This document shows, in pieces, positions 2,169 through 55,361 of a DNA stretch of 64,000 nt. Origin of the DNA: a virus. Lineage: Duplodnaviria > Caudoviricetes. Location of the stretch: the IMG/VR virus record IMGVR_UViG_3300044713_000064, positions 7,586 through 71,585 of that record, one strand, 5' to 3'. Position numbers and translations under genes: made by a program. The first letter of the stretch is position 1. Each line of letters starts with the position of its first letter. The notes beneath the pieces are model-generated. The model searched no databases. It worked only from the letters and a program-made list of their open reading frames with translations, and was not told the origin of the DNA.

Positions 2169-2368
2169 GCCTGTCCAGGGCGGAGATGCTCCAGGCGGTC
2201 AAGGATGGCCTGATTGACGCGACCAAGGCGCGCGCAGCGAACTGCGCCACCAACGGCATCGGCGAGGGCGTTCCCGCTGCTGCGGCGCAGTTCGAGAACG
2301 GCATGAAAGAGCTGAAAGACGCTTACGCCGCCTTCTGCGCCGTGATAGACATAATTTTCCCCGAATAG
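2165..2368 (+). CDS. Small hypothetical protein in the lysis module
   Basis: GTGA overlap with the endolysin stop; 67 aa. Confidence 0.55.
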   Translation: MSLSRAEMLQAVKDGLIDATKARAANCATNGIGEGVPAAAAQFENGMKELKDAYAAFCAVIDIIFPE

Positions 2369-7512: not shown

Positions 7513-7641
7513 GGGGGAACTCTCCTATTTCGGGGGTGATGCCCCAGCGGAGGCCGCTGGGTGCGGTTGGTCTTTGGGTAGGCCACCGTAGCGGCCGGTC
7601 CGGAATGACGCGCGTGGGCCAGAATGCGGCCCGGCGCGGGT

Positions 7642-18891: not shown

Positions 18892-18920
18892 TTGTCGATT
18901 TGTTCCACGGGTGCTAGACG
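18892..18920 (+). promoter_or_regulatory. Rightward promoter, probably giving a leaderless cro mRNA
   Basis: TTGTCG-N17-TAGACG ending 7 nt before ATG 18928; no SD. Confidence 0.45.
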
Positions 18921-18927
18921 GTCGGCT

Positions 18928-19209
18928 ATGTCAGAACAAACAATGTGCCAAAATCTATTCGTGATCGCCCAGGCCTACGCCGAGGCGACCGGTCTTTCGA
19001 TGGTGACCGTGGGAAAGAAAATCCATGGAAATGGGGACTTTTTCGGCGAGTTTCTCAACGGCGATATCTCGTGCGGCGTCAATACGTACTACCAGTTGGT
19101 GAATCGGTTCCGGGCCAGATGGCCGAAAGGCGCGCCTTGGCCCCAGACGTCCCCCATCGGAAGGTTGGGGAAAAAAATCGACGCAGGCTTCGTGGACGAC
19201 AAGCGCTGA
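18928..19209 (+). CDS. Cro-like HTH regulator
   Basis: AQAYAEATGLSMVTVGKKIHGNGDFF...WPKGAPWP; first gene at the divergent switch. Confidence 0.65.
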   Translation: MSEQTMCQNLFVIAQAYAEATGLSMVTVGKKIHGNGDFFGEFLNGDISCGVNTYYQLVNRFRARWPKGAPWPQTSPIGRLGKKIDAGFVDDKR

Positions 19210-19226
19210 TAGAATGTGATTCGTAA

Positions 19227-19255
19227 GTCGTCCCATTAGGGATGTGGATCGAAAT
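19227..19255 (+). CRISPR. Solitary type I-C-like CRISPR repeat unit (no array)
   Basis: GT-CGTCCC-ATTA-GGGATG-TGGATCGAAAT: 5' GTCG, hairpin and the TGGATCGAAA 3' handle typical of I-C repeats; intergenic. Confidence 0.6.
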
Positions 19256-19280
19256 GCGAATCCGATAAGAATTGCGAATC

Positions 19281-19490
19281 ATGGAAAACTTCGTCGACGA
19301 CCAGCATGAAACCGTCTGGATCAGTATCCCGTTGGACCCACTGACGGCCGCGCGCCTGCGAAACCTGTCAGACGTTTGCCATGTGGACCCGATCGGCGTA
19401 GCAGCCTCATTGCTTCATGATGTGCTCGCCGAAGACGACGAGGCGCACCGCCCCTCTGGCGCTGAGGCCGGTGCCATCACGATCAACTGA
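19281..19490 (+). CDS. Ribbon-helix-helix-like small regulator
   Basis: Beta strand TVWISIPL then two helices (DPLTAARLRNLS, PIGVAASLLHDVL). Confidence 0.45.
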   Translation: MENFVDDQHETVWISIPLDPLTAARLRNLSDVCHVDPIGVAASLLHDVLAEDDEAHRPSGAEAGAITIN

Positions 19491-46337: not shown

Positions 46338-46403
46338 TAGCGTTGTCACTTTTTGACGTCTCGTTTGAGGCGGATTGAAAACGGGAAAGCAGGAGCTTCA
46401 TCG

Positions 46404-47516
46404 ATGGACCGGAACCAAGCAATCGCCGAGTTTAACAAGGTGAGGCACGTCCTTAACCACGAGGGCGGGGTTATTTTCGATGGCGCCCGAATGTTCATTC
46501 CCGATGAGTGGAAGAACACGGGGGACAAGTCGCTCAGACAAATGGCGTTCGATGCCGCCGGCACCTTGGGCACCGATCCGAATGCGGCGCTCCCCGCGAT
46601 GCTCACCACCGGCATCAGCCCGGATGTGATCCGGTTCGTATTTGCCCCGCTGCAGATCGCCAAGATCCTCGGTGGTGAGCGCAAGGTCGGCGACTGGCTG
46701 ATGGAAACCTACATCTTCCCGGTCATCGAGGAGAACGGCGAAGTTTCCAGCTACGACGATTATTCGAACAACGGCCGCACCGGCATCAACTTCAATTACC
46801 CGCAACTCCAGTCCTATCTGTTCCAGACCTTCGTCAACTACGGCGAGCGGGAGACCGAGCGCGCCGGCCTGATGCGGATCAACTATGTGGGTGAACTGAC
46901 CAGCGCTGCGGCCGGATTGCTCAATCGATTCGGAAACCTCGGATATGCCTTCGGCCTGGCTGGCCTGCAGACCTACGGCTTGATCAACAACCCGTACCTC
47001 TCGGCGTTTTTGACGCCCGCCATCAAGGCGTGGGGCGGGACATCATGGTTCAACGCCGGCTCGCCGGCCGCAACTGCCAACGAGGTCTACAACGACATCC
47101 TGGCGGTGGTCGAGCAGATCATCAATCAGACCAACGGTGCGGTTGAGATGGACTCGCCGATGACGCTGGCGCTATCGCCGCAGTCGCAACTTGCCCTGGA
47201 ATTCGCGAACTCGTTCGGCGTCTTCGTCAAGGATCTCCTGAAGCGCGGCTTCCCGAACATGAAAATTGTCCCCGCGCCGCAGTACGGGCAGAAAACCACC
47301 AACAACACCCAGGGCGATTCCGCCATCGGGAACGTGTTTCAGATCATCGTCGATAACATCGATGGCGGCAAAGTCGCCTATCCAGCCTACAACGAGAAGC
47401 TCCGCGCACACAAACTGATCCCGCAGGCCTCAAGTTGGCTGCAGAAATACACGAGCGGGATCTTCGGTGTTGTCACGAGAATGCCGGTTGGCATAGCTGG
47501 GATGCTCGGCGTTTAG
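46404..47516 (+). CDS. Major capsid protein (DUF2184-like)
   Basis: LTTGISPDVIR, GERKVGDW, GEVSSYDDYSNNG, YGERETERAG, YGLINNP, EKLRAH; SD AGGAG. Confidence 0.9.
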   Translation: MDRNQAIAEFNKVRHVLNHEGGVIFDGARMFIPDEWKNTGDKSLRQMAFDAAGTLGTDPNAALPAMLTTGISPDVIRFVFAPLQIAKILGGERKVGDWLMETYIFPVIEENGEVSSYDDYSNNGRTGINFNYPQLQSYLFQTFVNYGERETERAGLMRINYVGELTSAAAGLLNRFGNLGYAFGLAGLQTYGLINNPYLSAFLTPAIKAWGGTSWFNAGSPAATANEVYNDILAVVEQIINQTNGAVEMDSPMTLALSPQSQLALEFANSFGVFVKDLLKRGFPNMKIVPAPQYGQKTTNNTQGDSAIGNVFQIIVDNIDGGKVAYPAYNEKLRAHKLIPQASSWLQKYTSGIFGVVTRMPVGIAGMLGV

Positions 47517-47542
47517 TCGCTCACGAGGGCGTGGATCGAAAC
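47516..47542 (+). CRISPR. Solitary type I-C-like CRISPR repeat unit (no array)
   Basis: GT-CGCTC-ACGA-GGGCG-TGGATCGAAAC; begins on the last base of the capsid stop codon. Confidence 0.7.
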
Positions 47543-47626
47543 CCTTCCCGGGGAAAATTGTGTATGAAGCCTTAGCCTCTCCATATATAACGTGGAGAGG
47601 CGGGCTCACAACGAAGGGAAGAGATC

Positions 47627-48316
47627 ATGTCGACACTGACGGCCAAGCAGAAGCGAGCAGAGCGTGAGGATCGTCTGCGGGCCGAGGGCGCCGCGCAGGC
47701 CCGGGCCGAAATGGCAGGCGCCGCTCCACGCGAATCCAATGGCCCGACATCCGAGCAAATCCAGGCGCTGAATCAGAAGGCGTTCGCTGATCCTGGCGCC
47801 GTTGCGGCCGCCTCTGGGGGTGTCGCGCAGCCCCAGCGCGCCGGCGCAAAGGTGATCGTCGCCTGCAAGATCGGCGTGCCGTACGTCAACCTGCAGCTTT
47901 GCGAGATGATCGAGGTCAACGAGGAGACGCAGACCGGCTCGCGGAAGCGGATGCAGGCACGGCGGACCGGGTCAGTTGTCCGGCTCCGCGGCACGGCCTA
48001 TCCTCGAGGCGCGAAGCCATCGGAATTTCCCGACCCTCCGGTCATGGTCGGCGGCGCCGCGCTGAACTACGGGATCGACAAGGACTGGTTCGATCAGTGG
48101 TTGGACCAGAACAAGCGCAGCGCGCTCGTGATGAATGGGTTGATCTTCGCCCATGAAAAAGAGGATATGGTGCGCGGGCAGGCGACCGAACAGGCGGCGA
48201 TCCTGAGTGGCCTGGAGCCGATCAATCCGAAGTCCGATCCGCGCATCAGGGCGTTCGCCAAGCCCACCCGGGAAGAGGTCAGCGATGTTGAAACCAGACC
48301 AAGAAAAGGCGTCTAG
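47627..48316 (+). CDS. Head-associated hypothetical protein
   Basis: VIVACKI, IDKDWFDQWLDQNK...NGLIFAH, SGLEPINP; follows the capsid gene. Confidence 0.7.
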   Translation: MSTLTAKQKRAEREDRLRAEGAAQARAEMAGAAPRESNGPTSEQIQALNQKAFADPGAVAAASGGVAQPQRAGAKVIVACKIGVPYVNLQLCEMIEVNEETQTGSRKRMQARRTGSVVRLRGTAYPRGAKPSEFPDPPVMVGGAALNYGIDKDWFDQWLDQNKRSALVMNGLIFAHEKEDMVRGQATEQAAILSGLEPINPKSDPRIRAFAKPTREEVSDVETRPRKGV

Positions 48317-48320
48317 CGAG

Positions 48321-48641
48321 ATGCAGCCGGAACGGAAGACGGTGCGCATCGCCTGCCGCATCCCGAACGGCGTCGCAATCCGTCTCTCGAAAGTGGGTTG
48401 GGATGACGGCACCGGCGTCAAGCCGACGGTCCATGATGGACCCGGCATCCGGCTCAACGGTCCGTCCCCTCTGCACACGGGAGCCGGCAACACTAGTCCG
48501 GACGATCTTGAGCCTGGGATCACGGACGTCGACGCGGAATGGTGGGGCAAATGGCTGGCGCAGAACAGGCTGAACCCGGCCGTCCAACTGAAGCAGATCT
48601 TTCTCCTCGAGGAGGAAGCCAAGTCAAACCCTACGCTGTGA
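48321..48641 (+). CDS. Short paralogue of the preceding head-associated protein
   Basis: TVRIACRIPNG...IRLNG...ITDVDAEWWGKWLAQN...IF mirrors the motifs of 47627. Confidence 0.6.
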   Translation: MQPERKTVRIACRIPNGVAIRLSKVGWDDGTGVKPTVHDGPGIRLNGPSPLHTGAGNTSPDDLEPGITDVDAEWWGKWLAQNRLNPAVQLKQIFLLEEEAKSNPTL

Positions 48642-51863: not shown

Positions 51864-52460
51864 ATGAAATCAAGTTTGAAAACGTGGCTGGCCGTCGCCT
51901 ACGTCGCCCTCGGGCTGATCATGTTCGCCTCGGCCGCGTTTTCCCAGACCGCCTACAATGGGCTCGGGAGTACGACGCACTTCGCCGGGACGACTCCCTA
52001 TACGGGGAATCAACTATTCGCGCTGAACAACAGTGGTAGCGCCGTGGCGTCGCCGATCGTTCTCAATAGCGTTCCTCAAGGGCAGGCGCTCACGATCAAG
52101 GCGTTGATCTATTCGAACGGCACCAACAAGCCGGGGACGTCGACGCTGTGGCTCTATTCGGCCAAGCCGACCACGACCGGTCTCGTAGATGGCAGCGCCT
52201 ACGTTGGACCTTATGCGGCGGATCTCGCCGCCAATATCTACCTGGGGAATCTTACCTGCTCGGCATGGCAACCGACCAACGACGCCACAGCGCAATATTT
52301 CTCCGAATGTTCCGGCTCGAGCCTGATGTTGACAACCATGCAGCCGATTCCATCGCAAGAACCGCAAGCAACTATCTATGCCTTGGAAGAGGTCGGCGCC
52401 TATACGCCGATCGCCAGCGAGAAGCATTCGTATTTCCTGCGAACCTATAAAGAGAACTGA
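51864..52460 (+). CDS. Secreted beta-rich protein (cassette gene 1)
   Basis: Signal peptide MKSSLKTWLAVAYVALGLIMFASAAFS-Q. Confidence 0.7.
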   Translation: MKSSLKTWLAVAYVALGLIMFASAAFSQTAYNGLGSTTHFAGTTPYTGNQLFALNNSGSAVASPIVLNSVPQGQALTIKALIYSNGTNKPGTSTLWLYSAKPTTTGLVDGSAYVGPYAADLAANIYLGNLTCSAWQPTNDATAQYFSECSGSSLMLTTMQPIPSQEPQATIYALEEVGAYTPIASEKHSYFLRTYKEN

Positions 52461-54986: not shown

Positions 54987-55361
54987 ATGACGAAATTAAG
55001 TTTGAAAACGTGGCTCGGTATTGCCTATGTCGTGATCGGGCTGATCATGTTTGCCTCAGCAGCTTTTTCTCAGGGCATCACCGATCAGCCCATGGTTCCG
55101 CTCGGATATTGCCAACTTACCGCGCCTTCCGCCGCAACCAAACTATCGACTTGCGCTGGCGGTATTCCAACCAACGCAAGGACGGCTTACATCTATGTTG
55201 AGACTGGCGCGGTTCGATATCGCGATGATGGCGTTGCGCCGACAGCCGCGATTGGCATGCCCATAGCTGTTGGTGGGACGCTATTTTACACGGGGACATT
55301 GAGCAGCTTTCAGGTTATCCAGCAGGCGGCATCAGTGGTAAATATTCTGTTTTATCGATGA
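54987..55361 (+). CDS. Secreted small beta protein (cassette gene 4)
   Basis: Signal MTKLSLKTWLGIAYVVIGLIMFASAAFS-Q; PLGYCQL, VRYRDDGVAPTAAIGMP, VNILFY. Confidence 0.75.
   Translation: MTKLSLKTWLGIAYVVIGLIMFASAAFSQGITDQPMVPLGYCQLTAPSAATKLSTCAGGIPTNARTAYIYVETGAVRYRDDGVAPTAAIGMPIAVGGTLFYTGTLSSFQVIQQAASVVNILFYR

Follow-up and report, generated by a model that had tools for sequence, protein, structure and literature searches.

A solitary, compact type I-C-like repeat unit on the stop codon of a phage capsid gene: a candidate RNA anti-CRISPR

Introduction

Why would a phage carry what looks like a single repeat of a CRISPR array on the stop codon of its major capsid gene? We addressed this question in a 64,000-nucleotide (nt) stretch of DNA, referred to here as the window, from a virus of the class Caudoviricetes (IMG/VR record IMGVR_UViG_3300044713_000064, positions 7,586 to 71,585). 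A sequence-only reading of the window had described, at the end of the capsid gene, a shortened type I-C repeat followed by 32 nt and a 9-base-pair (bp) hairpin, and had interpreted the three together as a complete CRISPR RNA (crRNA) mimic. All of these parts are present in the sequence. The analysis presented here indicates that the repeat is a real and probably functional element. We favor, with somewhat better than even confidence, the view that it is a solitary compact type I-C repeat unit that acts as an RNA anti-CRISPR (Racr) by competition, and we trace the 32 nt and the hairpin to a leader of the next gene that is older than the repeat.

Solitary repeat units in phages have been described as Racrs in a survey that included IMG/VR3 among its sources and that reports 2,103 viral units (PMC10651486). 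One of them, RacrIC1, lies 11 nt behind acrIC5, is made as part of a bicistronic RNA, and is active against a type I-C system (PMC10651486, Camara-Wilpert et al. 2023). Type I-C repeats are composed of a 2-nt overhang, a 7-bp stem, a 5-nt loop, and an 11-nt tail; Cas5c recognizes the nucleotides just past the cut together with the 3' tail, and changes to the loop and the 5' overhang are tolerated (PMC8524198). A clamp of Cas5c and Cas7 on the 5' handle nucleates Cascade (PMC7684278).

The capsid-site unit is a shortened type I-C repeat

The element is a 27-nt unit, GTCGCTCACGAGGGCGTGGATCGAAAC, on the plus strand at 47516..47542, as defined by its sequence, its fold, and a covariance model. Its first base is the G of the TAG stop codon (47514-47516) of the major head (capsid) protein gene (46353..47516, plus strand; phrog_264, expectation value [E] of 6.1e-50). 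A GU overhang (47516-17) is followed by a 5-bp stem (47518-22 paired with 47527-31, one pair being G-U) around a 4-nt loop (47523-26) and by an 11-nt handle, TGGATCGAAAC (47532-42). The unit folds as ..(((((....)))))..........., with the 5-bp stem at -6 kcal/mol. Cleavage by Cas5c, called Cas5d in the sequence-only reading, is predicted between 47531 and 47532, which agrees with the position proposed there. On the same strand, the unit is followed by the 32-nt stretch CCTTCCCGGGGAAAATTGTGTATGAAGCCTTA (47543..47574) and by a hairpin with the arms GCCTCTCCA and TGGAGAGGC (47575..47601), which has 9 bp (10 bp counting a G-U pair) and a 9-nt loop. A contig from another study (X2; 72.5 kilobases [kb]) spans 46400-48400 and shows 9 differences from the window over these 2001 nt; of those listed, none falls inside 47516-47601. 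Because the unit is unchanged in this independent contig, it is not an assembly artefact.

Genuine repeats for comparison were gathered with the pattern GTCGC-N12-18-GTGGATCGAAAC, one genome per species, which returned at least 120 loci. Among the loci listed, 45 were arrays of at least three repeats, mostly from Hyphomicrobiales, Rhodobacterales, Sphingomonadales, Acetobacterales, and Caulobacterales, and the arrays listed that have the exact handle of the capsid-site unit were likewise mostly alphaproteobacterial. The repeats collected were 31-33 nt long, and their spacers were mostly 33-36 nt. Cas8c/Csd1 was present in 4 of 5 array genomes tested (about 3.2 kb upstream of the array in two of them); thus, the collected repeat class is type I-C. 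From 33 distinct repeats of these arrays we built a covariance model, which was run unfiltered on both strands of the window. The best match was the capsid-site unit, with 31.4 bits and an E of 2.4e-7, and this bears out the claim that it is a real shortened type I-C repeat. The runner-up was a segment at 19227-19255 (14.5 bits, E 0.063), and all further matches had an E above 1. Chance resemblance to an I-C repeat is ruled out by the E-values of the model. The 12-nt tail taken alone is within chance, with 7 matches at up to 2 mismatches in comparison to 7.4 expected.

The unit agrees fully with genuine alphaproteobacterial I-C repeats (GTCGC...GCGTGGATCGAAAC) at its first four bases, its closing C-G pair, and its last 16 bases, and it shares with them the arrangement of an overhang, a hairpin, and an 11-nt tail. 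In sequence and structure (model, fold, and the layout in PMC8524198), the unit is therefore of the type I-C repeat class. It is, however, not a full-size member: it measures 27 nt with a 5-bp stem and a 4-nt loop, whereas the genuine repeats measure 31-33 nt with stems of about 7 bp and loops of 4-5 nt. It is also solitary, without an array or adjacent cas genes. A CRISPR array or mini-array is not present here, as there is no second model match near 47516-47601 and the two units of the window lie 28 kb apart. A lone intergenic repeat look-alike on a mobile element, unlinked to other repeats or to cas genes, is what PMC10651486 treats as a Racr, and the unit has each of these properties. Racrs are further expected to fit the CRISPR subtype of the host, to be transcribed from a promoter within about 250 bp or together with a neighboring gene, and to be bound or processed by the Cas nuclease so that interference is lowered; they are often, though not necessarily, located beside acr or aca genes.

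Related units, their insertion sites, and the compact format

The runner-up of the model search, unit 1, is a 29-nt solitary I-C-like repeat unit (19227..19255, plus strand) with a 6-bp stem, an ATTA loop, and the handle TGGATCGAAAT. The sequence-only reading had placed a second unit behind a cro gene. A unit in another operon is indeed found there, but the gene upstream of it (18892..19209, plus strand) belongs to phrog_7669, which has no assigned function. A third unit is present in a relative whose capsid is 90% identical (G005), where the covariance model gave 22.7 bits and an E of 2e-4. These three units fold alike, with a 2-nt overhang, a 4-nt loop, and an 11-nt tail, on stems of 5 (capsid site), 6 (unit 1), and 8 bp (G005). 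They have in common GUC...G before the cut and UGGAUCGAAAY after it; the stem sequences are unrelated, and all are paired. All three units of this phage group retain what, according to published work, Cas5c reads. In the relatives G001 to G004, the model found nothing below an E of 0.3. A weaker match was also seen in G005 (L027:2247-2270, minus strand; 16 bits, E 0.028; handle ATGGATCGAAAC); it shares the strand of the G005 unit, lies 158 nt upstream of it, and is possibly within an open reading frame (ORF).

Comparison with these relatives also delimits the insertions. Measured against G001 and G005, the window has a precise insertion of 33 nt (19223-19255) that includes unit 1. The insertion splits a perfect 12-nt palindrome, GATTCGCGAATC, that G001 and G005 keep before an ORF of 69 amino acids (aa) and that lies in the window at 19218-19222 and 19256-19262. 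The palindrome looks like an operator displaced by 33 nt. The 69-aa ORF (19281..19490, plus strand) is conserved and has no family assignment; a further ATTGCGAATC is seen just 5' of its ATG.

At the capsid site, the sister phage G001, which is alignable to the record over about 52 kb (73-98% identity), is homologous up to the capsid stop codon and again from just 5' of the next gene; relative to the G001-type allele, homology resumes at 47543. Where the window has the repeat, G001 carries an insert of about 1 kb with a gene for a 318-aa endonuclease VII/HNH-like protein (phrog_1035, E 1.9e-16; L023:6767-7723). This gene is allelic to window positions 47517-47542, and its stop codon falls within the conserved box of the leader described below. 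Both alleles occur in contigs from soil metagenomes, the repeat with the leader in X2 and the endonuclease-type allele in X3. The latter has 1017 letters between 47467 and 47542, and its likeness to the window resumes exactly 3' of the repeat. Judged from these alignments, both units are discrete cassettes, because unit 1 is a precise 33-nt insertion-deletion and because at the capsid site homology is lost from the end of the capsid gene up to 47543, where it returns.

Dozens of unrelated viral contigs show the compact format as well. Two scans of IMG/VR were restricted by design to a total length of 24-30 nt. A stem of at least 5 bp closing at the cut site was present in 13 of the 110 matches listed in the first scan (2.6 expected) and in 52 of the 117 listed in the second (4.1 expected). 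Among the matches listed, unique compact units measured 26-30 nt, and 27 nt was the commonest length in the larger set. One 35.9-kb IMG/VR contig carries two different compact I-C-like units (L171 and L176; 34.8 and 36.8 bits). The compact format may define the smallest RNA that Cas5c accepts. As side observations from the scans, a strong hairpin lies 3' of each of L171 and L176; the 27-nt unit GTCGCACTTCGGTGCGTGGATTGAAAC, which has a UUCG loop and is followed by similar sequence, occurs in L271, L304, L345, L353, L363, L380, L384, and others; and L309 and L268 look like repeat-spacer-repeat mini-arrays.

A possible decoy for Cas5c

How could such a unit interfere with immunity? We infer that it is co-transcribed with the capsid message, because the predictions place neither a terminator nor a sigma-70-like promoter between capsid gene and unit, so that the unit would form the tail of the capsid transcript. 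The steps that would follow are modeled on published I-C biochemistry. The RNA would offer the Cas5c of the host its recognition set, namely, the GU overhang, the C-G-closed hairpin, and the 11-nt UGGAUCGAAAC tail. Cas5c would bind and cut after 47531 and would stay on the handle of the downstream phage RNA, where Cas7 could assemble and polymerize. Cas5c and Cas7 would in this way be diverted from phage-targeting crRNAs. Unit 1 (19227-19255) would act likewise from its own operon; the early and late timing that the sequence-only reading gave to the two units is deduced from their positions.

The parallel to published Racrs is close. Like RacrIC1 and other Racrs, the unit is a lone type I-C repeat look-alike in a phage, with no array and no cas genes, and like RacrIC1 it lies directly behind a protein gene, probably on the same transcript. 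It differs from RacrIC1 in lying behind a capsid gene rather than behind acrIC5, with no acr gene recognized near it. This phage also differs from the Racrs described in having two units with stems shortened to 5-6 bp.

Several points weigh against competition as the function of the unit. Neither the sister phage G001 nor any of G002 to G004 has the unit, which is therefore dispensable. Its stem has 5 bp in comparison to 7 bp in real repeats, and acceptance of the shorter stem by Cas5c is an assumption, as is the presence of a type I-C system in the phage's own host. The model E-value of unit 1 is borderline when taken alone. No sigma-70-like promoter is predicted near the units, and no acr or aca gene was recognized beside either unit in a search that used no dedicated Acr library. 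A place behind the capsid gene, presumably a late gene, is odd timing for an anti-CRISPR. Finally, none of 1065 spacers from the 45 arrays matched any of six phage genomes over its full length, the best match being 19 of 34 nt. Capsid relatives in alphaproteobacterial genomes numbered 3 of 401, all at 46% identity or less, with no close relative among them; no RNA run was found among the listed holders of the phage sequence.

If the unit is active, type I-C RNA anti-CRISPRs exist in soil phages of (probably) Alphaproteobacteria, in a minimal 27-29-nt format that keeps only what Cas5c reads, and as tiny cassettes that move into gene junctions, even onto a stop codon. If the format does define a minimal Cas5c substrate, such a substrate would be of use in the construction of inhibitors or in guide RNA processing. 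No new principle is involved, since solitary repeats as anti-CRISPR RNAs, including an I-C one behind a gene, have already been published (PMC10651486). Noteworthy here are the unit's minimal size, its presence in two copies, its cassette-like mode of insertion, and an endonuclease gene as its allele.

The leader of the next gene and the crRNA-like geometry

The sequence-only reading had regarded the handle, the 32 nt, and the hairpin as one crRNA-like design. In such a design, selection would have acted on the three parts as a unit, which would provide a full-size Cascade with a harmless guide, and the insertion would have made use of a pre-existing hairpin; we consider both this selection and this mode of action unlikely. 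The geometry is certainly present in the sequence, and downstream RNA does matter in this type, as Cas5c of type I-C keeps the handle-bearing downstream fragment (PMC8524198, PMC7684278). Furthermore, a hairpin of at least 9 bp starting 27-33 nt past the handle was found in 4 of 9 selected noncoding units, compared with 0.9% at a random position. These nine were hand-picked (the three units of the phage group plus L171, L176, L215, L216, L223, and L226), and L264/L209, L254, L196/L194, L252, L179, and L255/L199 were left out as coding-looking or weak.

The relatives provide a different account of the downstream sequence. Eleven relatives with a readable capsid 3' end were compared (L006, L008, and L013 are cut and were left out), and the repeat was present at the capsid 3' end in none of the 11. 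The same leader precedes the same next gene in G002 (L003), G003 (L005), G004 (L009), and L004, and in G001 (L023) after its insert, and all five lack the repeat. This leader consists of a pyrimidine tract, a box, GGGGAAAATTGTGTA, with at most 3 changes, a hairpin that is variable in sequence and kept in position, and a GAGGGAA-like ribosome site. In the window, all on the plus strand, the tract CTTCCC (47544-49), which begins 2 nt past the handle, is a predicted anti-Shine-Dalgarno sequence; the box shared with the relatives follows at 47550-64; and the Shine-Dalgarno sequence GGGAAG of the next gene (47616..47621) is predicted to pair with the tract in minimum free energy (MFE) folds. In single-sequence MFE folds, 4 of 6 leaders are predicted to have the tract paired to the ribosome site. 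These are the only folds quoted here, the RNAalifold consensus of the six leaders having given nothing useful (-1.2 kcal/mol). Because five relatives without the repeat carry them, the 32 nt and the hairpin are, on comparative grounds, an older leader of the next gene with a putative regulatory role, and not a purpose-built spacer. The relatives keep the flanks and lack the handle, a pattern that the sequence-only reading had itself set against its proposal.

Additional features are at odds with a complete mimic. Among the 1065 spacers from arrays with this repeat class, only 12 are 32 nt or shorter, and 32 nt is shorter than 99% of them. The hairpin is unlike the repeat and is not accompanied by a second model match. 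Behind unit 1 and the G005 unit, the next gene follows directly, with no strong hairpin in between. In the complex, the I-C crRNA is without a 3' stem-loop (PMC7684278). The spacing was also assessed prospectively in a fresh viral set, an IMG/VR scan with the canonical ...GGATTGAAAY handle that yielded 34 unique units with a stem of at least 5 bp, two of them cut by contig ends and about nine from one related family. A hairpin at the spacing in question was found in 1 of the 34 units listed, and among the others, hairpins were either offset by 35 to 68 nt or absent. As a general design, handle plus about 30 nt plus hairpin was thus rejected, having been found in 4 of 9 picked units but in 1 of 34 in the independent set. 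We conclude that the likeness to a complete crRNA is owed mostly to chance, through the site at which the cassette happened to insert. The broader idea of an RNA-based anti-CRISPR stands as the best reading of the locus; the handle, spacer, and hairpin as an evolved whole do not, given the older leader, the longer real spacers, and the 1 of 34.

Three further observations concern the leader. The hairpin at 47575-47601 is not called as an intrinsic terminator and has no T-run after it. The box GGGGAAAATTGTGTA, considered as a repeated promoter motif, was rejected, as it occurs once per genome; its lone other near-copy, GGGGAAAATTATGTC, lies at window positions 2348-2362 on the minus strand with 2 mismatches, between two plus-strand genes and in the opposite orientation. 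The conserved leader (47543-47626) matches no Rfam family.

Relic, message processing, and guide RNAs

It is quite unlikely, in our estimation, that the unit is a functionless scrap of a host CRISPR array, gained by recombination and not yet lost. A relic would account for the patchy distribution, including the absence of the unit in a 90%-identical sister phage, and the capsid junction is an insertion hot spot, as the endonuclease gene of G001 illustrates. Such a scrap, however, should resemble the 31-33-nt host repeats with 7-bp stems. The stems of the three units, by contrast, are each shortened in a different way, yet the Cas5c determinants are kept in all of them, and the compact format is 5- to 13-fold above chance in unrelated viral contigs among the matches listed.

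The same position could serve the phage in cis, by borrowing Cas5c to cut the late transcript behind the capsid gene, which seems improbable to us. Equally improbable is the product that such a cut would leave, a hairpin-capped capsid mRNA and a free leader of the next gene with its predicted masked Shine-Dalgarno sequence. The unit does lie exactly between the capsid stop and a structured leader, and Cas5c leaves a cyclic-phosphate end at the stem's base (PMC8524198). Nevertheless, the relatives manage without a unit, unit 1 and the G005 unit lie in other contexts, and the 5-bp stem is weak (-6 kcal/mol).

Very improbable is a guide of the Cracr/crlRNA kind, in which Cascade would be directed by the repeat and a short pseudo-spacer to a cas or toxin promoter of the host. 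Viral RNAs made of a repeat and a pseudo-spacer have been reported to repress cas promoters, those of type I-C included (preprint 10.1101/2024.10.29.618823), and, as in these RNAs and in viral mini-arrays, a repeat-like element in a phage is followed here by a spacer-length stretch. The locus differs from them in having no second repeat, in being followed by the phage's own conserved leader, and in the absence of a target among the genomes searched. The sequences 3' of both units are ancestral phage sequence. The sequence-only reading had pointed to cas promoters with a TTC protospacer-adjacent motif (PAM) as possible targets of the pseudo-spacer; a guide of this kind calls for 9 or more PAM-proximal base pairs. 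The search gave no target: none of five I-C-bearing stand-in genomes, which are not the host's, contained TTC followed by the first 9 nt, and the best match in 860 kb around arrays was 12 nt.

We give the same very low standing to the idea that the unit is a one-repeat guide gene against sibling phages that turns the host Cascade-Cas3 on a competitor: a single I-C repeat would give the downstream RNA a Cas5c-bound handle, and the leader (47543-47574) would therefore be loaded as a guide, with the phage's own DNA safe because AAC of the handle occupies the PAM position. In the co-occurring G001/X3 allele, the same 32 nt are preceded by TTC, the I-C PAM (PMC8406640), and match at 29 of 32 positions; the differences, at 7, 10, and 32, could be escape changes.

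Genomic context and minor features

The record is a complete 71,585-bp IMG/VR virus with direct terminal repeats, and the G+C content of the window is 59%. The DNA of the window gave no match to cultured phages. Matches to the capsid protein in cultured phages, an Acetobacter phage among them, were all below 60% identity, most of those listed at 38-42%. Head protease and minor head genes lie 5' of the capsid gene and head/neck genes lie 3' of it. The gene directly downstream of the leader (47627..48316, plus strand; ATG at 47627) belongs to phrog_2085, which has no assigned function. The genes around both units thus comprise phrog_7669, phrog_2085, and ORFs without a family; the ORFs adjoining the units had no Pfam match even at an E of 5, and a protein atlas gave unnamed clusters only. 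A tyrosine integrase was not found in the complete record, nor were Cas5d and Csd1 found in it. A search of the window against Rfam gave no family at the gathering score and nothing CRISPR-like at an E of up to 10 around either unit.

Outside the loci considered above, the tail-gene region contains an 82-nt direct repeat (family D2) at 51866-51947 and 54992-55073. The two copies are 82% identical, are separated by 3.1 kb, and look to encode similar N-terminal membrane segments.

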